This document shows, piece by piece, positions 583-31,974 of a DNA stretch of 64,000 nucleotides. The notes below the pieces were generated by a model. The model saw only the letters and a list, made by a program, of their open reading frames with translations, was not told the origin of the DNA and did no database searches. Position 1 is the first letter of the stretch; every line of letters starts with the position of its first letter. The translations under genes and the position numbers were made by a program. The stretch is from a virus (taxonomy: Duplodnaviria > Caudoviricetes): the IMG/VR virus record IMGVR_UViG_3300020577_011550, positions 1 to 64,000 of that record. One strand, written 5' to 3'.

Positions 583-1922
583 GATTTCCTCAGCACCCAG
601 CCGCCGAGGGCATAAAGGCAGCCTTGCCAATCGCGTTCAGACACGCTCACACTGATCGCGCCGCAGGCTTCCGCCTTTGAACACAGTGACCAGACCCCGC
701 CAACCTTGCGCCAGAACATGGACGACAGCACTTCAAAGCCATAAAGCAGCGTGTCCAACCGGTCACCGCCATACACACGATGCATTGGGGCATGTACATG
801 GTCGCGCCCGACGGGCAGCGTTAGGATCAACAGTCCGCCCGGATTCAGCGCAGCATACAGCCGCCGCATCGCCTGCAAGTCACCATCTTTGACCATATCC
901 GTGACGCCATAGCGCCCGGCCAAGCCAATGTGTTCGAGCGTACTGCACGCTACGATGAGATCAAACGTCGGCAGCTCTACCGCCAGCACATCGCCAATGA
1001 TGGTCTTGGCTGGGACGTTCATCGGCTGGTAATCGAGAGCAGTTGTGCTCCACCCTTGCCGATTCAGCGTGTCGATAACACGACTGACACCGCCACTGCC
1101 TACGTCGAGCGCGGAGCGCCCCATACCCGCTGGAATGGCGAGATCAACAAATCGATATTCGATATCCCGATCCCCGGCCAGATTGTGCGAGAGGTGGAAA
1201 TTCAGCCCCCGCGGCGGGTACGGCGCGCTAAGACCAATTTCATAGGGATCTAACGGCTGCTGGCCGAGATAGCGTTGATGTGGATACCAGTCCATCCATA
1301 CGGGCGCATACTCCGGTTGCGGTTGATTCGCGCATAGCGCCTGATACGATGCATTCCGCCAATGGCTGTCATACGGGGCTTTCAACGCACCATAGTGGAA
1401 GATCGTCTGCGTCACCTCTTTAGTCATGCCCATCTTACCGGGTTCGAAGGCGGGGGTTTCGTGCGCAGGCTGGAACGCGCCCTCATGTCGGTAGCTGATG
1501 CCCTTGTTCAACAACCACGCACGCCATTGGCGATAGGGGTCAAGATCCGGCGCATAGTGCAGCCGATCGCGCACAAAATTCACGCGCGGCAGGTGCAGCA
1601 GCGCGAATTCTCCCCGCTCCAGCTCGCGCCGGATGCCGTCAATGTCCTCGGGGAACATGAGCTCATCCGGGTCAAGGCGCAGGATCGCGTCATAACCCGC
1701 CGCTTCGACATGATCGAGCAAGGCCTGCGCGTGCTCACCGAATTTCCAGTCAAAGGGGCGCTCGAAGACCACACCGCCGAGCGCGCGGATTACGTCTGCG
1801 CCGCCATCGGTGGACCCGCCATCCAGCGCGACCACGCCATCGACCGCCGGGAGCATCACCGGCAGATGCAGCTTAAGCCAAGCGGCTTCATTCTGAAACA
1901 TCAATGCGAGTGCGAGTTTCAA
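579..1922 (-). CDS. Glycosyltransferase family 2 fused to a class I SAM methyltransferase (DUF268-like)
   Basis: N-terminal GT-A motifs ([16 protein letters not shown]); C-terminal LDVGSG, STLEHIG...GRYG, LNPGG. Confidence 0.8.
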
Positions 1923-4267
1923 CCAATTCCTCCGAGAATGGATAACAGATCGCGGGATACGAGGCTCGTCAGGTAATCGCCCAAGAGCGTGCGCATAAAC
2001 GGTGTGGCGGCGACAGGAGTCAGCGGCGCAGGCTTCGCGGCTTGCAGTTCAGCGCGCAGTGAGGCGATCACATCATCCGCGCTCTCGGTAACGGCCGGCA
2101 AATTTGCGCAAAGGCAGTTGTGAACGACGTGACCGTTGACCGTGTACGTATTGTCTGTGTCCACGTGCATGTTGTACACCAAGCCGGTGTAGAACTTTTG
2201 CTCTACTGCCCGGATCACGGTATAATTCATGTGGGCTTGAGTGGGATTAGCTACCCCGCTGACAAACTGGTTTCCTGACCGGTCGCCCACCTCAACATCA
2301 GGAGACGATGACAGGAGATCGTTACTATGCGCGCTTGTACCAAGTGCTGCAAGTTGTGCGACGGCATTCTCTGCCGAAAATGCTACGACGAAGGCCGCGC
2401 CCAAGCAGCAGCTCAAAGAAATGCCGTTCGTATTTGCCCCCGGTGCGGTGCACCCCGCGCACGAAAAACCAAACACTGCATGAAGTGCAGCGGCGAAATT
2501 CGCACAGAAGCTGTCTTGAAAGACCACATTTCGCGAATTGAAGCAGTTTTCAATCGCCCAATCCTTGATGTCCTCACCGAGTTGTATACCAATTCCACGC
2601 TCGGAACTCCCGATATTTGTACCCAACTTGGCGTCCCGTTTAGAACCCTGCGTGCAATGCTGCTCCACATCGGCATCCCACTTCGAACACGCAGTGAAGC
2701 TGTCAAAATGCAGTGGGAAAGACCTAACAGCGATGTTCGTCGCACTGTCCAAGGACAGCGTATGGGGCAATTTTCCAGAATCTATCTTCGAGGAGAAAAC
2801 AACCCCGCCAAACGTCCCGAAGTGGGGGCGAAGATTTCCCGCGCCAAGTTGCGCCATAATCCGGGACTGAATGTCATGCGCGGCGCCGAGATCCTCCGCC
2901 CCACCAGCATTGAGATCGCTATGGGTGAAGCGCTGCGCGCCCAAGGTTTCCGCTTTGAACGCGAATACCGGGTTGGCCGCTTCTTCTTGGATTTCGCTCA
3001 CCCCATTGCCAAGATCAACATCGAATGTGACGGGTTGTACTGGCATAATGCCGAACGGGATGCTATCCGCGATCAATGGCTGTCGGCGCGTGGTTGGATT
3101 ACTTTCCGGTACACCGACGAGATGATCAACAGCGATATTCAGTCCTGTATGGAGCACTTTATCTTCTGGCTTGAGGTCTTGGGCATTGACCCATCCGCGC
3201 TCGGTTAAGACCGGGTGCTCAGGCGTCAGCGTAAAGCGGCCTGAGTCGGTTGTGACCTCGTAAACCTGCCCATCGTATTGCCGTGACCATGCCATCAGGA
3301 CACGGCAATACCGCCCATGATCTGTCAGCACATAATCACCCTCTCGCACATCCTCAATGACAAGCACACCTCGCTTGGTTGTAACCAATTGCCCCGGCGT
3401 ACAGCATTGCGGGTGGCTATCCGCTACAACCATCGGCGCACCCTCGAGCGGGTACGGATCTTTGATGCGTTCACCGCTCATGCCAATGGTGGCGAGCTGG
3501 TCGCAGATATCGGCTTTCGGATGCCGGGCCGACAAACGCCAGTCCATACCGCTGACGAACGGATTCGCGCGGCTGGCTGCAAAAGTCGCCTCCGATGCGG
3601 CGCGGCTCACTTCTGACCGGGCCAGCACCATCGCGTGAAAGCTGGCGTCTGTGCCATAGGGCTTGTTCGTGCGCAGCGTCCGAGTGGGACGTAGGAAGGC
3701 TTCAAGATCTTGCGACATCAGCAGCGCACCGCGACCGGTGCGGATACCATCAGTCAGCAATGCGTCGATTTTGAGGCGTGTGTTCTGCCCTGCCCTCCAG
3801 ATGCGATCACTGAGGCGATAGCCATTCGGGTCAACCCACGTGTGCGGGGCATCATAATTAGCCAGCGGATTGGTGATGTTCACCTGCTCACGCGCCAGCG
3901 GACGAGCGGTCGCCAACCATGCGAGCACATCATCCGGCAGCCGTTTGCGGAGATACAAGGTGTGCGCAGTCAACGTCCGCGCAACACCTAAAGCCATTCG
4001 GTAGTTCAGGATCGAAGCGAAGCGCGACACGGGCGTTACGCCATCCGTGGCAAAGACCATTCGCCCCTGGGAGAATAACCCGGACACAATGGCGCCACAG
4101 TTTTCCAAAACCAGATCGCGGCGATAGGTCGGGATCACCCCATTCACGGTATTTTGGGTGAGAATGCCGCTCAACTGTTGTACAGCGTCGGCCATCATTT
4201 GATCGACGTCGGCGTTGATTTCCTTGAGTGTCTGGTAGACCACCCGGGAACTAGCGATGTTTTTCAT
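1919..4267 (-). CDS. Minor head / head morphogenesis protein (SPP1 gp7 / Mu gpF family) containing an intein
   Basis: Follows portal; LARSEVSRA and WRLS...ICD motifs; HPQ|CLC (HPNCRC-type) motif restored after removing the intein. Confidence 0.88.
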   Translation of the reverse strand: MKNIASSRVVYQTLKEINADVDQMMADAVQQLSGILTQNTVNGVIPTYRRDLVLENCGAIVSGLFSQGRMVFATDGVTPVSRFASILNYRMALGVARTLTAHTLYLRKRLPDDVLAWLATARPLAREQVNITNPLANYDAPHTWVDPNGYRLSDRIWRAGQNTRLKIDALLTDGIRTGRGALLMSQDLEAFLRPTRTLRTNKPYGTDASFHAMVLARSEVSRAASEATFAASRANPFVSGMDWRLSARHPKADICDQLATIGMSGERIKDPYPLEGAPMVVADSHPQCCTPGQLVTTKRGVLVIEDVREGDYVLTDHGRYCRVLMAWSRQYDGQVYEVTTDSGRFTLTPEHPVLTERGWVNAQDLKPEDKVLHTGLNIAVDHLVGVPESNPTTRRQPLIADSIPFGIMPVQPVTFDVDLGNGVSEIQEEAANPVFAFKAETLGAQRFTHSDLNAGGAEDLGAAHDIQSRIMAQLGAGNLRPHFGTFGGVVFSSKIDSGKLPHTLSLDSATNIAVRSFPLHFDSFTACSKWDADVEQHCTQGSKRDAKLGTNIGSSERGIGIQLGEDIKDWAIENCFNSRNVVFQDSFCANFAAALHAVFGFSCAGCTAPGANTNGISLSCCLGAAFVVAFSAENAVAQLAALGTSAHSNDLLSSSPDVEVGDRSGNQFVSGVANPTQAHMNYTVIRAVEQKFYTGLVYNMHVDTDNTYTVNGHVVHNCLCANLPAVTESADDVIASLRAELQAAKPAPLTPVAATPFMRTLLGDYLTSLVSRDLLSILGGIG
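2198..2226 (+). promoter_or_regulatory. Sigma70-type promoter for the antisense endonuclease, inside the intein coding sequence
   Basis: TTGCTC(2198-2203)-17 bp-TATAAT(2221-2226); GAACTTTTGCTC (LexA-like) overlaps the -35; CAGGAG RBS before ATG 2327. Confidence 0.6.
2327..3208 (+). CDS. Vsr/DUF559-family (PD-(D/E)xK) homing endonuclease with Zn-finger and NUMOD3-like motif, antisense within the intein
   Basis: CxxC clusters, GENNPAKRPEV, then PTSIE...FEREYRVGRFFLDFA...IECDGLYWH...RDQWLSARGWITFRY; RBS and promoter present. Confidence 0.88.
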   Translation: MRACTKCCKLCDGILCRKCYDEGRAQAAAQRNAVRICPRCGAPRARKTKHCMKCSGEIRTEAVLKDHISRIEAVFNRPILDVLTELYTNSTLGTPDICTQLGVPFRTLRAMLLHIGIPLRTRSEAVKMQWERPNSDVRRTVQGQRMGQFSRIYLRGENNPAKRPEVGAKISRAKLRHNPGLNVMRGAEILRPTSIEIAMGEALRAQGFRFEREYRVGRFFLDFAHPIAKINIECDGLYWHNAERDAIRDQWLSARGWITFRYTDEMINSDIQSCMEHFIFWLEVLGIDPSALG

Positions 4268-8383: not shown

Positions 8384-9420
8384 GATTGAGACTCTTCGAT
8401 AGACGCTTCAAACACAGTATCGGAATAATCCACTGAATCACCCATGACCTCATAGTCTTTGACGCGAATGCCGTTCTTTGCGTTGCCGACTGCTGTAGCT
8501 GGACGCCAGAATGTACCCGTGTACTTACCGAACAAGGGTGCATCGTCGGTGTAGTGCGCGAAATTACCGCGCCGAATGTGCAGTGGTATAACATCGAATT
8601 GCTGTTGAGGCTTATCGTCGCGCTCATACCGCTTGCCCATCGGCTTAATCGCCAGCGTCTTGTATTTCGTCATGGGCACGCCGAAATGACGTTGATAGGC
8701 CGCGTTGTCGGCGGGATCGGGTTCGTGGTCAATGGTGACGATGTTGCGGCAGTTGAGGAATTGAACGCCGTACAAGCCGCGATAAACCAGAGCAATAAAA
8801 CAGGCGTACCTATTCGCGAACAGCGATGTGTTAACATCTAATATTTCACCTTGATCGTTGAGGATTATTACGCCAGTTCCGATTTCCTCAAACTCACCCT
8901 CAAAGATACTAAAACATGCAACATTGATACTTTTGCATGTATGCGATGATTCCTCCGAGTCATACTGACATCCAAAGTAAACTACGATCCCATTGCTCAC
9001 CATAACCAGATCATCGGCATCAAACCATGTCTGATCCACGATCCGCATCTCAATCAGGACTTCAGAAAACGGCATATTACCGACTGATTGAAATTCAAGC
9101 TTTGGAGGGCGTTCAAATAGCCCGGCAGGAGTCTTGATTCGAGGCTCCATCTCAGACAAGTCTATGACCGGGAGAGTGGATGATATGAACATATCGCACC
9201 CTGCAAGAGGGGAGACTTCTGACGGCAACGGAAATTCATTGCCCGTTGTATTCCAATAATCATCACGTATCTGTATATCAGCCAATTCTTCAGCGGCAGC
9301 AGCTTTAACTTGCTGGATAAGCAAGTCAGATAGCCGCGCCCGCTTGACCAGCCCCTCGATTTCTCGCGCCTTCTGTACCTGTTCCATGCGCTCACGGCGC
9401 TTGCGTGATGCTTTACCCAT
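8380..9420 (-). CDS. Hypothetical phage protein (AT-richer cassette)
   Basis: 346-aa ORF, RBS GAGGTG; C-terminal HIRRG...FW...VG...G.RVKDY motif seen in phage hypotheticals. Confidence 0.8.
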   Translation of the reverse strand: MGKASRKRRERMEQVQKAREIEGLVKRARLSDLLIQQVKAAAAEELADIQIRDDYWNTTGNEFPLPSEVSPLAGCDMFISSTLPVIDLSEMEPRIKTPAGLFERPPKLEFQSVGNMPFSEVLIEMRIVDQTWFDADDLVMVSNGIVVYFGCQYDSEESSHTCKSINVACFSIFEGEFEEIGTGVIILNDQGEILDVNTSLFANRYACFIALVYRGLYGVQFLNCRNIVTIDHEPDPADNAAYQRHFGVPMTKYKTLAIKPMGKRYERDDKPQQQFDVIPLHIRRGNFAHYTDDAPLFGKYTGTFWRPATAVGNAKNGIRVKDYEVMGDSVDYSDTVFEASIEESQS

Positions 9421-10255
9421 TGCTCACCTCTTTGTCGTTAATCTCGCAATTAGCGATAGCTTGCTCTCTCACCCACTCGAAATAAGCTTCAATCCGTTCA
9501 ATGATTGCCTGCGCCTGATCCTCCCCAAACGTTTCACGTAACCACACGTGAGGATGCTTGGCACTTTTTCGAAGATTTAGGCGTCCTGCCATAGGTAGCA
9601 TATTCCCAGGCACAGTGCCAAGCGAATTCGGATCGGCGATCGGTATCCAATGGTCAATGTGGAGATCGTCGGTTACCCCTGTAATCGCACAAGCATTACC
9701 CCAATAGCTCATCATCCGCTGATAATCGTCTGCCGTAAAAGAATTCGGCAAACTAGAAATACGCGCCCGCCGACACAAATCATGAATCTGAACTGTTTTA
9801 GGATTGTTGGTTTTCCATGCCTTCTTATATCGCTGAACCTTGCCAGAATTCGTTGATTGCCATCGCTTAATCTGAACCTGCACATTCGGGTTCTTTTTAT
9901 ATCTTTCACGACGCTTTTCACGGATAACAGGCAGCTTTTCATGTTGCATCTGTGCATCACACTCAATACAAGTAGGTCGCCTACGAAACTTCCCTCGCTT
10001 TGCTGGATAAAATTTGTCTGCTGTTTTGAATTGCTTGCAGCGAGTGCATTGCTTTTTGCCCGTCATTTTCGACAGATCAAGCAGGCAGACTAGATCGTGC
10101 TGCATAAGATAAGTGCAATATTTGCAGCGAGCCGTCAAGCCGAATTTGCCGAGCTTTTCACGATAAAAATACTGAGGCGTTGCGGGGAAACATTCTTGAC
10201 ACAGGCTACAACGTTTGTAGTCCTCTGGACATGCGGTATACTGATACATAAGCAC
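9413..10255 (-). CDS. HNH homing endonuclease, free-standing
   Basis: Repeated CxxC fingers with PATPQYFY; CAITG...HIDHWIP...N...N HNH motif; own promoter and leader hairpin. Confidence 0.9.
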   Translation of the reverse strand: MLMYQYTACPEDYKRCSLCQECFPATPQYFYREKLGKFGLTARCKYCTYLMQHDLVCLLDLSKMTGKKQCTRCKQFKTADKFYPAKRGKFRRRPTCIECDAQMQHEKLPVIREKRRERYKKNPNVQVQIKRWQSTNSGKVQRYKKAWKTNNPKTVQIHDLCRRARISSLPNSFTADDYQRMMSYWGNACAITGVTDDLHIDHWIPIADPNSLGTVPGNMLPMAGRLNLRKSAKHPHVWLRETFGEDQAQAIIERIEAYFEWVREQAIANCEINDKEVSNG

Positions 10256-20879: not shown

Positions 20880-22190
20880 GTGGCACTCTACAGCGGCTAA
20901 AGTCGCGTAGCATTTGAACGACGCTTGCGCTTGCCATTGCCTTTCAGCAATGACAGAGGCGCTACGTTATCGTTCACGGATGTGCCCCATCCGGCTCGAT
21001 TTAAAATGTTGATCGCAGCATTGTGGTCTCTATCGAGCGAGAGGCCACAATCACATTCTACCCATCGGATTGATAGGCCGAAGTCATCAAACAGTGAACC
21101 ACAATTCGAGCATGTTTTGGAAGTGTAGGCAGGATCTACAAACGCGATCTCACGTCCGGCACTCGCAGCCTTGTACGTGAGCAATTGCTTGAAGAAACCC
21201 CACCCGGCGTCCAAAATGCTTTTACTGAGGTGTTTATTCCGTGCCATGTTGGTGATGCTTAAGTTCTCAATCGCAATCCGGTCATATCGCCGTACAAGAT
21301 CATGACTCAGCTTGTGCATAAAGTCCTGACGCTGATTGGCAACGTGTTCATGCTGGCGCTGCACTTTCAGCAACTTCTTGCGGCGATTTTTCGACCCACG
21401 TTTCGCCCGCGCTAACTGACGCTGCAAACGGCGTAGACGTTTCTGTCCAGATCTATAAAAGCTAGGGTTGGTGGTCTTTTCCCCATCACTGGTTGTGATC
21501 AGTGACGCAATCCCAACATCGATCCCCACCACATGTCCATTTTTAGGGAGCGTTAACGGTTCGACAGTCTCGCAGGTAAAACAAACATACCACTTGTCAG
21601 CGCGGCGAAGGATACGCAGAGTCTTGATTGTACCTTCTAGCGGGCGATGCCAACGCACGGGGATACGTCCGACGCCAAACAACCTCAAGCGGCGACCATC
21701 CAGCTTTGCCCCCATGCCGTACTGCTTGAACTCAAAACTGTTAAAACGGTTGCGAGACTTGAAGCGTGGATAGCCGGGGTTCTCTCCTGCTTTGACACGG
21801 CGAAAGAACGCCTGAAACGCAAAATCCACCTGTTTAACAACAGCTTGTGCTGTCTGACTAAACATCTGTTGGGCTGGCGGGAAAGTTAAACGATAGTGTT
21901 TGGCAAGCTGCTCTAAGTCCGAAAGCGTGACCGTGCGTTTTTCTAGCTTGTAGGCGTATTTTCGTTCCGCTAGCGCCATGTTGTACAGGTTGCGGGCGCA
22001 ATCTAAAACACGCAGTAAGTGTTTCTCCTGCGCCTTGCTTGGGTACAAGCGGTATTTAAAAACCTTGATATGAGTGCTAGAATTCGCCATGCTCTGACAG
22101 TCCTATTGTCGGAGAGCCAGTGGGGATTGCCGTCCCGTGACTGGCATTTTTTATTTTAGCACAAATGTTTGATTGTGCAACCCTTAATCC
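20880..22190 (-). mobile_element. IS200/IS605-family element carrying tnpB only (IS1341-type); left end approximate
   Basis: Right-end hairpin tacgcgactttagccgctgtag ending in ...CCAC at 20880; no tnpA. Confidence 0.75.
20897..22090 (-). CDS. tnpB: RNA-guided endonuclease TnpB
   Basis: YKYRLYP-type N-terminus, VGIDVG, IAIENL, CxxC..CxC, DRDHNAAINI; RuvC D-E-D intact. Confidence 0.95.
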   Translation of the reverse strand: MANSSTHIKVFKYRLYPSKAQEKHLLRVLDCARNLYNMALAERKYAYKLEKRTVTLSDLEQLAKHYRLTFPPAQQMFSQTAQAVVKQVDFAFQAFFRRVKAGENPGYPRFKSRNRFNSFEFKQYGMGAKLDGRRLRLFGVGRIPVRWHRPLEGTIKTLRILRRADKWYVCFTCETVEPLTLPKNGHVVGIDVGIASLITTSDGEKTTNPSFYRSGQKRLRRLQRQLARAKRGSKNRRKKLLKVQRQHEHVANQRQDFMHKLSHDLVRRYDRIAIENLSITNMARNKHLSKSILDAGWGFFKQLLTYKAASAGREIAFVDPAYTSKTCSNCGSLFDDFGLSIRWVECDCGLSLDRDHNAAINILNRAGWGTSVNDNVAPLSLLKGNGKRKRRSNATRL

Positions 22191-22331: not shown

Positions 22332-22814
22332 ATGAGCACGAAAGCACAGCGTTTACTCCCCCACCTGATCGCCCACCTGAACGTTTGGAACGAGCGCGCG
22401 TTCACCGTGTCACAGTTGTACGACGACCTGCTGCGCACGATTGACGATCCCAACTTCGACGTGCTGGAAGGTGTCAGCGAAGCCATCATCCGCGACGCCG
22501 CCAAGCTGCTGCCGGAAGGCTGCGTGAAGGTTCTGCCGAATCGCCGCCTTGTTCTCCAAGCCCGTGCCTTTGCCAAGCCTGAGGAACTTGTCAAAGTCCT
22601 GCGCGCCATCGAACGCGAACGGTTTCCGGAGACCGCCGATCTGAATCTCGGTCTGTTCGTCGACAAACTGATCGAAGACCTGCAATTCCGGCTGGTGTTG
22701 GGTCGTCCGTGGTACGTCCACCAATCGCTGGATTGGGCGAAGGCGACCGGGCTGTTTGAAGTGACGCCCACGTTCTACGGCATGATGCTGCGTTGGACGC
22801 GAGGTGCAGCGTGA
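22332..22814 (+). CDS. Hypothetical protein
   Basis: RBS GAGG; first gene after the operator. Confidence 0.75.
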   Translation: MSTKAQRLLPHLIAHLNVWNERAFTVSQLYDDLLRTIDDPNFDVLEGVSEAIIRDAAKLLPEGCVKVLPNRRLVLQARAFAKPEELVKVLRAIERERFPETADLNLGLFVDKLIEDLQFRLVLGRPWYVHQSLDWAKATGLFEVTPTFYGMMLRWTRGAA

Positions 22815-23371
22815 ACACGGTCGATTGGGAACATCCGATTGGTTTCGAACGTGTCGTCAAAGGCGAGACCCGGCGTGAAAACCGCTTCCTCGTCACCTGC
22901 GGGGAGTGTGGCGAGTCCCGTTTGCTCAAGCGCATTGATGCGAAGAAGGTCGAGCAAACAGACGCGCCGTGCTACCCGTGCACGCAGCGCGAGAAGGGCA
23001 AGCTGGGCTACCGCGCGACCATCGAGCGGCATGGCGAAAACTTCTTCCTCGATCTCATCCGCGAACGTGAGCTGAACAATCCGCCGGTGCTCACCCGCGC
23101 GCTGATGGACATCCTCGATAACGTGCTTCACATCCGCTACGAACGTGAAATCCAATGTGGCCGCTACCTGATCGATTTCGTTATCGGCGACCGGTTCGCC
23201 ATCGAGGTCAACGGTGGTGTGCATGTGCTGCATGCCGAGCGCGACGCGCGCAAGGCGCAGTTCCTTCGCGAGCAGGGCTATGAACTGCTCGTCCTCGAAC
23301 AAGCCGACATCCCCGACGCTGCTGATCGGGTGTGTGAATTTTTAGGAGTATACGAACTTGCAACGGTCTGA
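22811..23371 (+). CDS. Free-standing Vsr/DUF559 endonuclease with N-terminal zinc ribbon
   Basis: YEREIQCGRYLIDF...AIEVNGGVH...RDARKAQFLREQGY. Confidence 0.85.
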   Translation: MNTVDWEHPIGFERVVKGETRRENRFLVTCGECGESRLLKRIDAKKVEQTDAPCYPCTQREKGKLGYRATIERHGENFFLDLIRERELNNPPVLTRALMDILDNVLHIRYEREIQCGRYLIDFVIGDRFAIEVNGGVHVLHAERDARKAQFLREQGYELLVLEQADIPDAADRVCEFLGVYELATV

Positions 23372-26300
23372 GATTGTGAAGGCGCTTGAGCCCTTCGTGC
23401 CATCCGATGAGCAGATGGCGATTTTTGAGGCGGCTGTCAATACGAAAGACAACATCGGCATTGACGCCAAGGCGGGGACAGGTAAGACGACCTCGATTGT
23501 CCAGTTGGCGAAGCTGCTGCCCGGCGGAAAGTCCATGAAGAAGCGCTTCTGTGCGTTCAACAAGCCGATTGCCGATGAACTGGCGGATCGGCTGAAGGAC
23601 ACGGGCACCGATGCGAAGACGTTCCACAGCATGGGCGTGGGCGCGCTGATCCGCTATTTCGGCGGCAAGCAGATGAATCTGGACGACCGCAAGTATAAGA
23701 AGCTCGTCCAGGCGTGGTTGGCACTGCCCGACGAGCCGGAATGGGCGAAAGAGGTGGAGCAGCCCCGCGAACTGGCGCTGAAGGTGCGGGAACTGGTGGT
23801 TCAGACGGTGAGCAAGCTGCCTCCGGATGATCGGAAGGAAATCGCCGCCGAGATGAACAAGCAGTTTATCGAGTTGATGACGAGCGTCTTGAACTTCCTG
23901 CGCCTGAAGCTGATCGGCTGGACGGATACCGCTGCGCTGCGCGATCTGATCGACCACTACAGCTTTCAGGACACCCTCCCCGATGAATTCGTCGACGTCG
24001 CGGTCGAGATCGTTCCCTATCTGATGGGGCTTGCCGAGCAGCTCGTGAAGAAGGCATTCGAAGTCGATTTCACCGACCAGATTTATTGGGCGGTATACTG
24101 GCAGATCCCGACTACGCAGTATGACTACCTGCTGGCAGACGAATGCCTGCCCTACTTGACCCCCGTGCAATTGGCTGACGGATCAGCGCTCCCGATTGGC
24201 GAGATCGTCGAGAAACGGCTGTCCGTGAAGGTGCTGGCCTACGACACGGCGACGGGTGAGCAGCGCGCGTGTGAAGTCACCGGTTGGAGCAGAACGCTCA
24301 ATCAGAAACCGCTGGTCAAGATTAAGGCGCGCTGGACAAAAAGCCACAAAGATGTTGTGGCTGACGGCTATAAGCAGCGTCCCACTAATTTCGTCGTCTG
24401 CACCGTCGATCACAAGATCTGGGCAAATGGGACATGGATGTATGCGGGCGATGTTCGTCCCCGCATGGTTGTACAGGTCGAGACGGGCGCGATCAAGTCG
24501 CAGGCATACAAGATCACCACCAGCGGGCGCGAAACCCTTTCCAGCGAAATGACCGCTAAAAACCGGGAGGGGATTGTCGCGAATCATCGCGGTGGGTCGA
24601 TCACGGTCCGGGGCGGGAACGGGCGTGGGCTGACACTGGCGCAGAGCGTGCTGCTTGAAGCGCTTGGCGAAGGCTGGACAGCCGAATACGCAGTAAAAAC
24701 GGGATTGCGTCAGGACAGCGGTTATCCCACGAGCTACAAAGTGGACATCGCTAATCCGGAACGCATGATCGCCGTTGAGGTCGATGGTGAAACCCATCGT
24801 AACCCGGTTCAAAAGCAGCGTGATCAGAAGAAACAGGCGCTGCTTGAAACGCTTGGCTGGACGGTGCTGCGCTTTTCGAACCGCCAGTGCATCCAGACCA
24901 CACAGCAGTGCGTGCAGGCGATCAACGACGATTGCCCGCTCGATGCGATTGTCGCGTCGGTTGAACCGATGAGCCTGCCTGACAACTTCGTCTATGACAT
25001 CACTGTCGCCGACTGCCATAACTTCTATGCCAATGGCATCCTCGTCCACAACTGTCAGGACATCAACCCCATGCAGCGCACGCTGCTGGCGCGTTCCATC
25101 AAGCCGAACGGCGGGCGCATCATCTTCGTGGGCGACCCGGATCAGTCAATCATGAATTTTGCAGGGGCCGACTCGGACAGCTTCGAACTCTCCGTGAAAA
25201 CTTTCAACGCGAAGGTGCTGCCGCTCACCCTCACCCGCCGCTGCGATCAAGTGATCACGCACCATGCTGCCCAGCTCGTCCCTGAATTCCGCTGCCCGCC
25301 GGAGAAGCCGCGCGGCAAATTTGTGTGGCTGGACGAGTCGCGCATGGCAGGCATTGTGCAGCCCGGTGACATGGTCGTTTGTCGCATGAAAGCGCCACTG
25401 GTGACCGGGTGCTTGAACGTGATCGCGGAAGGCAAACCCGCCACTATTCTAGGCAGTGACATCGAAAAAGGCTTGATCGCGCTGCTCGAAAAGCGCAGCG
25501 ACTACAAAGACGACTTCGACAATCTGGATGACGCGCTGGATGGCTACGAAGCCGAACAGGTGGAGCACTTCACAGCGCGCGATGAGCTTCAGGCCGCGGA
25601 TGCCGTTGCCGATCAGTGTGCGGCGCTGCGCACCATCATCCACCGCGCGAAAGCCGACGACATGGACGCCTTGAAGCGCTATATCGAAACCCTGTTCTCC
25701 AGCGGCAAGAAAGAGGACATGGTCGTCTTCGTGACCGCGCATAAGTCGAAGGGCTTGGAGGCGGATCGCGTGTTCATCCTCGCACCGGATCGGATGCCCC
25801 TGTCCTATCCGAACATGCTGCCTGAATCGGCAGTACAGGAAATGAACCTGCTGTACGTCGCACTCACCCGCGCCAAACACACGCTGGTGATCCTCACCAA
25901 CGAGAAGTATCGCAAGAACAATGTCATGCCCGCCTACGGGCAGACAGACTTTGACGAGCACCAATGGGCAGCCGACGAGTTCGAGCCAAAGCCTCCGCAG
26001 GAATACGACTACGTCTACAACAGTCGGCATGATGATTTCGACCGCGTGCCCGTTAATTCGCCCGTGGGCGAAACGACGATTGATGAGATCGTGCAGATGA
26101 TCAAGGACTCGGGCGTTGAGGGTTGGGATCTCGAACTGTCATCCGGCTTCGAAGACAACGGCCCCAGCCAATGGGTGCTGGCCTACGATGACCCCGAGCT
26201 GGTTGACGACATCATTTTGGGCAGCAACCTGACGATGGTCAAGCAGCGGCTGGAAGTGGAATTGAAGCGACTCGCCAACGCCAATCAAGCGCCGCCTGAA

Positions 26301-26456
26301 CCCGTCGCGCCTGCCCCGGTCGTCATCACACCCATCATCCCGGAGAAGGTTGATAAGCTGCGCGCGGTCGTCGCGACGCTCACCGATGTCGAGCTGGAGG
26401 ACATGATCCGCTATCTCTCCCAGTTCCGTGAAGAGCGCCGGAAGGCCAGCCCGTGA
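23358..26456 (+). CDS. UvrD/REP superfamily I helicase containing an intein
   Basis: AKAGTGKTT Walker A, DE|CQD Walker B split by the intein, [27 protein letters not shown]. Confidence 0.93.
24144..25052 (+). other. Intein (303 aa) with in-frame DUF559/Vsr endonuclease
   Basis: [10 protein letters not shown]...TVDHKIW...VDIA...VEVDGETH...RDQKK...[21 protein letters not shown]|C. Confidence 0.93.
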
Positions 26457-28875: not shown

Positions 28876-29363
28876 ACGATCGACCAACCATTCTCATCTG
28901 TGGCAGTCGCGAGGCTTCGCCCGTGCTGCTCGACTATGCGCGCCGCGCCACACTCCGCGCGCTTGAAAATGGCTGGTGGCTCATCGCCGGGGATGCCCTT
29001 GGTGTGGATCAGGTGGTCGCCGAAACGGTGCGCAACCACTTCCAGCACGAAGACGAGCTGATGTATGGGATGCGCGTCTACGGGCTTGGCGATATGCCGC
29101 GGCATGGCATTGGCTCAAATACGGGGCGTGTTCATTTCCAGAAACTGACTGGCTACACCAAACAAACCATGACCCGTGGCCGCTGTGATTTGCATGTCTA
29201 CAACGAGTACACGGCGATCAGCAGCTACACCGACCGCGACCGCTACATGGTGCGCGAGGCGGATAAGGTGCTGTGCATCTGGAACGGCAGCAGCCGGGGC
29301 ACGCTGGCAGTCTACGAGTACGCCGAAGAACTGGGAAAGGAGGCTTGGCTTAAATATGAATAG
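28872..29363 (+). CDS. SLOG-superfamily (YspA/DprA-like) protein
   Basis: ICGSR, AGDALGVD, RDRYMVREAD...WNGSSRGT. Confidence 0.8.
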   Translation: MNDRPTILICGSREASPVLLDYARRATLRALENGWWLIAGDALGVDQVVAETVRNHFQHEDELMYGMRVYGLGDMPRHGIGSNTGRVHFQKLTGYTKQTMTRGRCDLHVYNEYTAISSYTDRDRYMVREADKVLCIWNGSSRGTLAVYEYAEELGKEAWLKYE

Positions 29364-30648
29364 TGCCCTTTTCTCCTCCGCCGCCGCGCTATGGGCCACG
29401 CCACAAGACCTGTTCGATAAGCTGCACCGCGAATTCCACTTTGAGGTGGACGTGTGTGCAATCGCTGAGAATGCCAAGTGCCCGGTCTACTTCACGCCGG
29501 AAATGGACGGCTTGAAGCAGGAGTGGCTAAGTACCCTCATAGTCAATAAAACAGGATCTATCTGCCAATGTCAGAAGCACTCATTCAATGCTCCAAGTGC
29601 AAAGAATATAAACCTGCTACAAGGGAGTTCTTCTACCCAGACCAACGTAAGAAAAGCGGATTTGCCACTCAATGCAAAGCTTGCAAAAGAAAAGGGAAAC
29701 GTTCGGACAAAGCGATTGAAACAGGTAAATTGGAATGCACCCGTTGTAAGGTCACTAAACCCCTTACACTTGAGTATTTTGCTCGCAACCCTGATAACCG
29801 AACAGGATATTCCTCTTGGTGCCGAGAATGCAGTCGTGAACATGCTCGGCTTAAACAGGCGCGCCGACGCGCTGATCCTGTGGAGCGAGCTTCTGTCATT
29901 GCGGCCAAAGAGAAATATGCTAAATCAGAAAAGGGGCGACAGCGCAGTCGGCGCAACACTAACATCCAAAACCATAAGAGACGTCAGCGAAATATTGAAA
30001 CGCAATGGGATTGGACAGCAACCGACTGGAAAACCTGTAAAGCCGCTTGGGATCACTGCTGTGCATATTGCGGGGAACGCGGAAAACTTACGCAAGATCA
30101 CTTTATCCCCTTATCTTCTCCCGACTGCCCCGGAACAATCCGTCAGAATATGGTTCCGGCGTGTGCCAAGTGCAATTCTTCAAAACAAAATCGGTCGCCA
30201 TTTGAATGGTGCACGAACCAAGATGTACTACGAAGGATACAGAGTTACTTCGCATCATTGCCCACAGTGCGGTGAATGCATCGAAATTACGTATCCATCT
30301 ATAGCATGGATGAATCCCCCGTACGGTTCGCCGGAGCACGTGTGCAAGCCCAACTGCAAAAAGAAGCGCTGCGCGAAGCGCGGCTACCACAACACCGTAT
30401 ACAAGCCGGGCATCATCGACTTCATGCACAAGGCGTACACCAGCGCGAAAGCGGGCGCAACCGTCGTGTGCCTGGTTCCGGCCCGCACCGACACCAAATG
30501 GTGGTGGAGCTACGCGATTCACGGCGAAGTCCGGTTTTTGAAAGGACGCCTCAAATTTGGGGACGGGAAGAAGAATGCGCCCTTTCCGTCAGCGATCATC
30601 ATTTTTCATCCGGGTCTTGCCAATCAGGGAGTAAAATGGGGGCTATGA
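29356..30648 (+). CDS. Phage Dam-type DNA N6-adenine methyltransferase with a ~255-codon in-frame insertion
   Basis: WATPQDLF..L...F.FEVDVCA...NAKC...DGLKQEW / WMNPPY...VCLVPARTDTKWW...FLKGRLKF...APFPS; insertion lies between W and WMNPPY. Confidence 0.88.
   Translation: MNSALFSSAAALWATPQDLFDKLHREFHFEVDVCAIAENAKCPVYFTPEMDGLKQEWLSTLIVNKTGSICQCQKHSFNAPSAKNINLLQGSSSTQTNVRKADLPLNAKLAKEKGNVRTKRLKQVNWNAPVVRSLNPLHLSILLATLITEQDIPLGAENAVVNMLGLNRRADALILWSELLSLRPKRNMLNQKRGDSAVGATLTSKTIRDVSEILKRNGIGQQPTGKPVKPLGITAVHIAGNAENLRKITLSPYLLPTAPEQSVRIWFRRVPSAILQNKIGRHLNGARTKMYYEGYRVTSHHCPQCGECIEITYPSIAWMNPPYGSPEHVCKPNCKKKRCAKRGYHNTVYKPGIIDFMHKAYTSAKAGATVVCLVPARTDTKWWWSYAIHGEVRFLKGRLKFGDGKKNAPFPSAIIIFHPGLANQGVKWGL
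29568..30275 (+). CDS. HNH homing endonuclease nested in a shifted frame inside the methyltransferase gene
   Basis: CSKCKE..PATREFFY, CAYCG...LTQDHFIP...NMVPACAKCNSSK; ACAGGA RBS upstream. Confidence 0.9.
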   Translation: MSEALIQCSKCKEYKPATREFFYPDQRKKSGFATQCKACKRKGKRSDKAIETGKLECTRCKVTKPLTLEYFARNPDNRTGYSSWCRECSREHARLKQARRRADPVERASVIAAKEKYAKSEKGRQRSRRNTNIQNHKRRQRNIETQWDWTATDWKTCKAAWDHCCAYCGERGKLTQDHFIPLSSPDCPGTIRQNMVPACAKCNSSKQNRSPFEWCTNQDVLRRIQSYFASLPTVR

Positions 30649-31063: not shown

Positions 31064-31089
31064 AAGCCGGGCATTACGCCCGGCTTTTT
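31064..31089 (+). terminator. Rho-independent terminator
   Basis: aagccgggc-attac-gcccggcttttt. Confidence 0.8.
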
Positions 31090-31867
31090 AGTTATGCTGA
31101 GGAAGTGTCGGTTTTGGAGTCTCACGCCGAAATTCAAAATCCCAATCGGCATTCCCTACCCACGGATAGGTACAATCTGGCATCGCCTTAATCTCAAGCA
31201 CTTCTTCTGGAGTCAAAGAGAACCACTCGGTATCGCCATGTCGCTTATCTGCATATCGTACATGCAGCTCGTGCTCTAAGCAGGCGATTTGGTTGCTCTG
31301 AATCTGGTGTAGAAGCTCAATGCTGAACGGCAACCCTGAAGTAATTTCGCGTCCACGTCGCTGTGGGTTGTTCGAAAAGCCGATCTTGTAGTGCCCTGTC
31401 GAAAGCTGAAACAGATACACATAGCCAGTATGAGGATCGGGATATTTCCAATACAGGTCTTTAAAGCGGAGATATTCTTCATACCGTCTCAAAAGAGTGT
31501 CGGCCTCTTCAAGACGATCATGAAGCATTAGCACTTCATCGGTCGGCTGTAAAACGCACTGCTCGTAAAAGTAGCTACACCACAGTTCAAGCTGGCTGCG
31601 TCCTTCGTCAGAGCGAACGAACCAACGAATAAATTGAACAAACTCAGTGTCCAGATACTTATGGTTCCGATAATGTTCAATTCCCGTATCTAAACGCTTG
31701 TGCATCCAATACAGGTTAGCAGCAGCAAGCAGAGCTTTATGGTTAAGTTGAACATGGAGAAGAGTCTCAGCGAGCGCGTTTACATCCGCGCCATATACAT
31801 CGGAAACAAGTTCAATCGAGGTTTCACCGATTAGGAATTTGAATCCACTGATTTTGATGTTATACAT
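31088..31867 (-). CDS. GIY-YIG (T5orf172/Mug113-like) domain protein
   Basis: GYVYL...YKIGFS...LEHELH..YA..R...EWF; own promoter TGGTATAAT. Confidence 0.85.
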   Translation of the reverse strand: MYNIKISGFKFLIGETSIELVSDVYGADVNALAETLLHVQLNHKALLAAANLYWMHKRLDTGIEHYRNHKYLDTEFVQFIRWFVRSDEGRSQLELWCSYFYEQCVLQPTDEVLMLHDRLEEADTLLRRYEEYLRFKDLYWKYPDPHTGYVYLFQLSTGHYKIGFSNNPQRRGREITSGLPFSIELLHQIQSNQIACLEHELHVRYADKRHGDTEWFSLTPEEVLEIKAMPDCTYPWVGNADWDFEFRRETPKPTLPQHN

Positions 31868-31974
31868 CGCGCACCTCCGCGATTTGTCACCTATGAAGAG
31901 ATGGCAGTCAGGACGGTAGGTGTTCCGTCTTTTCGGTGATCAGCCTAGACTGCCAATAGAATTATACCATGTGA

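Follow-up and report, generated by a model that had tools for sequence, protein, structure and literature searches.

A gene for a MuF-like minor head protein near the start of the viral DNA analyzed here, a stretch of 64,000 nucleotides (nt) referred to below as the window (positions 1 to 64,000 of the 77.8-kb virus record IMGVR_UViG_3300020577_011550; Duplodnaviria, Caudoviricetes), is interrupted by an intein, and the opposite strand of that same intein encodes an endonuclease. We read the locus, with a probability of roughly 0.75, as a composite selfish element of two opposite-strand genes, in which the MuF intein took up, in antisense orientation, a free-standing nuclease cassette equipped with a promoter and a translation switch of its own. 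This reading is carried by the anatomy of the locus, selection on two reading frames, catalytic residues, covariation within an RNA leader, and the sharing of that leader with other genes. An earlier interpretation made from the letters of the DNA (the sequence-only reading) had likewise proposed a two-gene selfish element, and the proposal is borne out by selection on the nuclease frame, an intein frame that is kept open, and a conserved promoter and leader. One piece of DNA would thereby encode two proteins, an intein and a nuclease, and in addition hold a promoter and a covarying RNA fold. Its parts are as follows (aa, amino acids; E, expectation value):

1919..4267, minus strand: MuF-like minor head (head morphogenesis) precursor, 782 aa (PHROG 1657, E 7e-24; phrog_115, E 1e-6)
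3406-2117, minus strand: class 1 intein, 430 aa (C1, T61-x-x-H64, H429-N430, +1 Cys)
3140..3406, minus strand: N-terminal splicing half, residues 1-89 (AlphaFold pLDDT 95), the DNA of residues 67-89 also encoding, on the opposite strand, the end of the nuclease and its stop codon
2231..3139, minus strand: sense-frame insert, residues 90-392, with no domain and predicted to be disordered; the reverse image of the leader and nuclease
2117..2230, minus strand: C-terminal splicing half, residues 393-430, carrying the putative nuclease promoter on the opposite strand
2198..2226, plus strand: predicted sigma-70-type promoter, TTGCTC-17-TATAAT, with a predicted start at about 2233
2231..2290, plus strand: three-way-junction RNA leader, comprising P1, P2, the junction GACAA, and P3 with loop L3 (from minimum free energy and covariation)
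2298..2305, plus strand: decoy site (copy 1), complementary to loop L3 (from complementarity and covariation)
2304..2323, plus strand: hairpin P4, whose loop holds the Shine-Dalgarno sequence at 2313-2317 (copy 2), also complementary to L3 (from complementarity and covariation)
2327..3208, plus strand: EDxHD/Vsr-like (DUF559) endonuclease, 293 aa (DUF559, E 3.9e-12)

A nuclease gene antisense to an intact intein

Profile matches assign the 782-aa product to families of head morphogenesis (PHROG 1657) and minor head proteins (phrog_115), and the intein interrupts the C-terminal HPxCxC motif immediately ahead of its first Cys, the flanks reading HPQ/C...HN/CLC (slashes mark the junctions). The claim of a complete intein in this protein agrees with a Pfam Intein_splicing match (E 5.4e-11, 43 bits against a cut-off of 35.8) and with a predicted Hint fold formed by both halves, for which the gp41-1 intein is the best match (Z 19.3, root-mean-square deviation (rmsd) 1.5 over 123 residues). 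All 23 homologues share residues C1, T61, H64, H429, and N430. Position 4 of block F is occupied by N412, not by Cys, and the class 3 W-C-T triplet is absent. By its motifs and modelled Hint fold, the element at 3406-2117 is a class 1 intein. An intein-free relative, P0009, reads HPHCLC at the same site, and this empty allele, together with the spacing of block A, rules out an intein start at the second Cys.

AlphaFold confidence is about 95 for residues 1-89 and 393-430 and below 50 for residues 90-392, and the sense translation of this insert has no family match in Pfam, PHROGs, or NCBIfam. It had been said that some 290 aa lack a recognizable in-frame domain; the absence holds, and the length is corrected to ~303 aa. 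An ordinary in-frame nuclease within the sense insert, which a check with hidden Markov models (HMMs) might have brought to light, was found neither in these three profile libraries nor in the predicted fold.

The antisense open reading frame (ORF) at 2327-3208 stands in register 0, that is, in exact codon register with the intein frame, just as the sequence-only reading had described it. From its N-terminus, the product comprises CxxC zinc ribbons, a helical region (a confident predicted helical bundle at aa 60-130), a NUMOD-like stretch, and a nuclease domain at about aa 191-284. A DUF559 match recurs in 13 of 13 homologues; profile comparison with 3R3P, the catalytic domain of I-Bth0305I, gives E 2.5e-6, and the same structure is the best Foldseek match of the nuclease model (E 2.9e-4, rmsd 2.4, TM 0.78 on target). 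Five residues (E196, D222, E233, H240, and D245) are invariant in the 13 nested homologues and align to the I-Bth0305I active site, with D222, H240, and D245 falling on its D196, H213, and D222. Its predicted Vsr-like fold and catalytic residues would thus make the protein an EDxHD-type nuclease, for which homing cleavage is predicted. Regarding the earlier architecture of Zn-finger/NUMOD3/DUF559, the last domain is secure, the zinc finger is called by CxxC motifs only (C37 and C40 being invariant), and NUMOD3 lacks confirmation, its HMM giving no match in the window nuclease and one weak match (E 0.15) among 13 homologues. The nuclease's stop codon, read in reverse complement, is intein codon L67, which follows block-B His64 by three codons, so the overlap between the nuclease's last codons and the block B region, which had also been noted, is real.

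Protein searches and DNA patterns together yielded 19 distinct full-length nested elements at the same MuF site, all of them with an in-register antisense ORF of 256-299 aa; twelve of the nested loci were detected by DNA pattern alone and hence were not picked for open frames. Locus searches seeded with protein sequences contributed little. Codon-level comparison covered 13 aligned nested nucleases, the counts being pairwise and not independent. In the nuclease frame, identity at the three codon positions is 0.56/0.63/0.39, and 3979 single-base differences are silent only in the nuclease, versus 769 that are silent only in the intein. Over the last 18 nuclease codons, which overlap the splicing domain, the counts are balanced (131 nuclease-silent versus 159 intein-silent), and both frames are constrained there. 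Antisense-stop codons number 0 in the 13 nested nucleases, versus about 49 expected, and 27 in 11 non-nested genes with the same leader, versus about 34 expected. The comparison of frames across homologues, as suggested in the sequence-only reading, has therefore confirmed that selection acts on the nuclease frame and not on the intein frame alone, and that the intein frame is kept stop-free across the 13 homologues.

A putative promoter and a covarying RNA leader

The predicted promoter lies, as had been claimed, within the C-terminal intein codons. The companion claim, that the nuclease has its own promoter and ribosome-binding site, stands with regard to the conserved -10 box and the Shine-Dalgarno sequence AGGAG (9 nt before the nuclease ATG) and is weakest at the -35 box. 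What had been missed altogether is a ~95-nt structured leader that spans the interval from the -10 box to the start codon. In all 18 aligned leaders, nested and free-standing alike, the -10 box is situated 6-7 nt before P1, so the transcript should start at the RNA structure. The junction portion (2231-2290) has a minimum free energy of -25.7 kcal/mol (z -3.0), with loop L3 at 2271-2278. Throughout the alignment, 89-91% of cells are paired and 76-80 cells have changed on both sides; none of 500 shuffles reaches the covariation score, and slid controls drop to about a quarter of it. G-U pairs are frequent, indicating that the nuclease strand is the folded strand.

At least six versions of L3 occur in the 18 training leaders, and both downstream copies change along with it (p 5e-5); in 13 further leaders, retrieved with patterns independent of L3 and the tail, L3 again matches both copies (p 5e-5, and the same for 8 distinct loops), these p-values being inflated by the relatedness of the leaders. 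The L3-decoy and L3-Shine-Dalgarno pairings are thus both supported by covariation, and the leader probably controls translation of the nuclease. Nothing in Rfam is matched at the gathering cut-off; this and a different order of elements dispose of the leader as a c4 antisense RNA or an HDV-like ribozyme.

Distribution, alleles, and competing explanations

The leader precedes the 19 nested nucleases. It also occurs ahead of free-standing genes antisense to morphogenesis genes: eight complete ones of the zinc-finger/HNH type and a partial one with a zinc finger. These have no intein opposite them, so the leader is not explained as a side effect of intein coding. Several of the free-standing loci lie just downstream of small head-gene-like ORFs with a terminal CxC (judged by eye; PHROGs gave no name). 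At another locus (L194:10697-12531), the same leader precedes an antisense zinc-finger/HNH gene that splits the MuF intein at the same site, the whole forming a fractured MuF gene. The start of the C-intein there stands back to back with the HNH promoter. Neither the Gordonia loci tested (three VSR and one LAGLIDADG) nor the two Vibrio loci have the leader. A search of prokaryote genomes returned 0 matches with a strict pattern and at least 120 with a loose one; among the matches listed, the model scored none higher than 21 bits. Such leaders are not mentioned in the main text of a survey of viral structured RNAs (PMC10690425). None of the nested nucleases had been called in the fetched contigs; antisense genes of this kind are thus missed by gene callers.

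Alleles at the MuF site range from full inteins (393-435 aa) through partly deleted (183-216 aa) and mini-inteins (123-141 aa) to empty sites. Two partly deleted inteins that were examined keep the promoter, leader remnants, and nuclease tail, and in deletion derivatives at L037:5334-5456, L041:3425-3551, and L049:6712-6783, the end of the nuclease gene is joined to a retained promoter and a portion of the leader. The window's nearest relatives, 85% identical over 150 extein residues, carry 123-aa mini-inteins, and two mini-intein alleles cluster with it both by extein and by intein ends (support 100/99 and 99/93), which fits vertical descent. In trees that are short and for the most part poorly resolved, full alleles have partial and mini ones interspersed between them, the support being moderate in most cases. 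One old capture followed by repeated loss would be the simplest reading of these patterns, repeated gain being a possible alternative.

In the composite element as we envisage it, the mRNA of the head gene would be translated straight through the insert, and the intein, given its intact class 1 motifs and fold, would splice out itself along with ~300 aa of meaningless translation, restoring HPQCLC. The nuclease cassette would be a captured free-standing unit, and its conserved promoter would drive a separate antisense transcript that starts at the folded leader. Pairing of L3 with the decoy would leave the Shine-Dalgarno sequence free in the P4 loop (on), and pairing of L3 with the Shine-Dalgarno sequence would turn translation off, both the switching and its trigger being conjectural; such a leader would act in the spirit of the ribosome-binding-site hairpins of T4 homing nucleases (PMC2988022). 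During co-infection, the nuclease would most likely cut intein-free MuF alleles near the insertion site, as I-Bth0305I and published phylogenies suggest, and the entire unit of intein and cassette would then be copied in by repair. The cassette would be old in this intein clade and repeatedly deleted, giving rise to the partial and mini-intein alleles.

Several points count against this account. The -35 box, TTGCTC, is weak, matching the consensus at 3 of 6 positions, and a consensus promoter scan did not call the promoter at 2198-2226. The leader set was seeded with sequence patterns that include P1, P2, and the junction, so the conservation of these parts is partly built in. Nor is the leader nuclease-specific, because it also precedes a radical-SAM/photolyase-like gene that is divergent from a probable terminase small subunit gene (L220:5705-6650) and a short ORF at L047. 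The extein and intein trees give no sign of a recent jump or homing of the window copy, and, owing to their shortness and limited resolution, gain versus loss is not proven.

Other explanations must be weighed with these points in mind. The antisense ORF might be a shadow frame, open because codon usage is GC-rich, and the intein a decayed ordinary one; in-register antisense frames are indeed often open in this genome, the chance of zero antisense stops being 0.025 for one such gene. This artefact is ruled out, to the point that we give it next to no credence, by the selection on the nuclease frame (where third positions vary), the DUF559 match in every homologue, the invariant catalytic residues, and the confident nuclease fold, the frame without a domain or fold being the sense frame. 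It is very unlikely that the element is as described with the window copy in a phase of decay, either inactive or without empty alleles to find: its nearest relatives do carry mini-inteins, and partial deletions exist in the clade, but the catalytic residues, -10 box, and every leader helix are intact in the window copy, and neither frame contains a stop. An expressed nuclease might also use the intein as a safe harbor and cut another target or nick, rather than mobilize the intein as a unit. The use of the same leader by free-standing HNH genes at several places in morphogenesis regions, and the lack of any recent horizontal move of the window copy, lend this some plausibility, yet it is improbable in view of cassette and intein occurring together at one site in 19 diverged elements, of free-standing relatives just downstream of small ORFs ending in CxC, and of the horizontal patterns reported for two clusters of VSR-like MuF inteins (bioRxiv 10.1101/2025.01.02.630785).

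With respect to the leader itself, a less likely alternative to a two-state switch in cis would be a damper of fixed structure or a small RNA (sRNA), c4-like or int-alpA-like, that is released and acts in trans. Rfam does type int-alpA and Mu-gpT-DE as sRNA genes, but L3 covaries with both the decoy and the Shine-Dalgarno sequence of the transcript to which it belongs, and the two partners argue for a switch since a static structure needs only one. We would tentatively extend the composite-element reading to a portable cassette, made up of a promoter, a two-state anti-Shine-Dalgarno switch, and a zinc-finger nuclease, that occurs free-standing, between split intein halves, and inside an unbroken MuF intein, its leader being a regulated switch that is read, for example, by the nuclease's zinc finger or by a phage protein. 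If true, this would assign a function to RNAs of the int-alpA class and would explain how an antisense nuclease inside a late gene is both expressed and restrained. Autoregulation through the N-terminal zinc finger is a guess, and one that is weakened by the presence of the leader before a radical-SAM-like gene.

Elsewhere in the window, the MuF-like gene is neighbored by a portal gene and a glycosyltransferase/methyltransferase gene, with the terminase and portal genes upstream on the minus strand. The intein of a UvrD-like helicase gene (23358-26456, plus strand) contains a DUF559 domain in frame (aa 459-524); the sequence-only reading had already named the helicase intein as one with an in-frame endonuclease. 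The DUF559 domain is 26% identical to the antisense nuclease over 100 aa, a value low enough to disfavor descent of the nuclease from the phage's own helicase intein. A free-standing DUF559 gene (22793-23371, plus strand) lies directly upstream of the helicase gene and overlaps its start. Other genes of note are an IS605-type TnpB gene (OrfB_IS605, Cas12f1-like TNB) at 20897-22090 on the minus strand, an HNH ORF (29568-30275, plus strand) overlapping a longer ORF (29176-30648) that is read in a different frame, and an endonuclease VII-like ORF at 9413-10255 on the minus strand.

Comparison with known systems

Among catalogued RNAs, the leader is built like int-alpA (RF02996), which shares its three-way junction, its order of elements, and a P3 loop complementary to the 3' tail. 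By score it is not a member, the leader at 2231 giving no match to RF02996 at E 10 (gathering cut-off 35.8 bits). A true int-alpA member does occur in the window at 31888-31955 on the minus strand (46.9 bits), behind a TATAAT box, and its loop L3 matches both a decoy and the Shine-Dalgarno sequence of an endonuclease-like ORF at 31088-31867. The 3' half of the leader weakly resembles Mu-gpT-DE (RF03012; 13.1 bits in the window and up to 24.4 in homologues, against a cut-off of 49), whose consensus pairs the same CCUG with the CAGG of a Shine-Dalgarno sequence. Both families are catalogued as sRNAs, and a literature search found no paper on the function of int-alpA RNA.

RNA structure around the Shine-Dalgarno sequence also limits the translation of homing nucleases in T4, including I-TevI, II, and III, segB, and mobE (PMC2988022). 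Control in T4 takes the form of a single hairpin that is removed by the choice of a late promoter, whereas the transcript of the window's nuclease would have the structure at its very start and would seem to be controlled through alternative pairings of a loop. The leaders described by Dassa et al. in 2009 (PMC2677866) are, again unlike this one, simple hairpins with T4-type late promoters. Their fractured genes resemble the window in holding a nuclease cassette with its own control elements between intein motifs; the EDxHD nucleases in them lie between the halves of split inteins, whereas that of the window lies in an unsplit intein whose sense frame runs through the whole cassette. Locus L194, with its antisense HNH gene, is a related example of such a fractured gene. 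I-Bth0305I, the EDxHD prototype (PMC3239194, PMC2677866), resembles the window nuclease, with its putative N-terminal DNA-binding modules, in having a C-terminal Vsr-like domain and five catalytic residues; it resides in a group I intron (PMC3239194), whereas the window nuclease is antisense in an unbroken intein and its activity is predicted.

The closest relatives are those of Gosselin, Arsenault, and Gogarten (bioRxiv 10.1101/2025.01.02.630785), who reported antisense VSR-like, possibly EDxHD, nucleases in full inteins and listed the MuF-like minor capsid inteins of actinobacteriophages as "VSR -1 ORF", class 1. The presumed novelty of the antisense layout is thereby lost, since it was published in 2025 at an equivalent MuF site. 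In the Gordonia phages Angelicage, Malisha, and Sampson, the inteins end before the same C-terminal CxC, and antisense ORFs in register match a profile of the window-clade nuclease (E 3e-9 to 3e-16). In Malisha and Sampson (L039 and L040), the Shine-Dalgarno sequence of the antisense nuclease is apparently the reverse complement of intein block F codons. The Vibrio phages 1.265.O and 1.266.O (L031 and L032) have inteins at the MuF position with unannotated in-register antisense DUF559-like ORFs of 245-246 aa, each with a TACAAT box upstream and no structured leader.

The VSR -1 ORF inteins and that of the window thus have in common the gene family, the site before CxC, a contiguous class 1 intein, an in-register antisense Vsr-like nuclease, and an in-frame middle without structure. 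The window intein is longer, at 430 aa against a published class 1 range ending at 385 aa, and its nuclease stops inside the block B region, whereas the published nucleases read further through; the N-terminal zinc ribbons, the ~95-nt leader, and the conserved -10 box belong to the window's clade. The preprint contains no analysis or mention of promoters or leaders, left open how the antisense nuclease is expressed, and proposed that it originated as a free-standing nuclease invading an intein. The window's clade offers sequence evidence on both matters, namely a conserved promoter with a translation-control RNA with regard to expression, and, with regard to origin, the occurrence of this module also on nucleases that are free-standing or split an intein, at this site or close to it. 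To an antisense layout that was already known, the clade adds the promoter and a leader of int-alpA-like build that is uncatalogued and occurs with free-standing nucleases as well.

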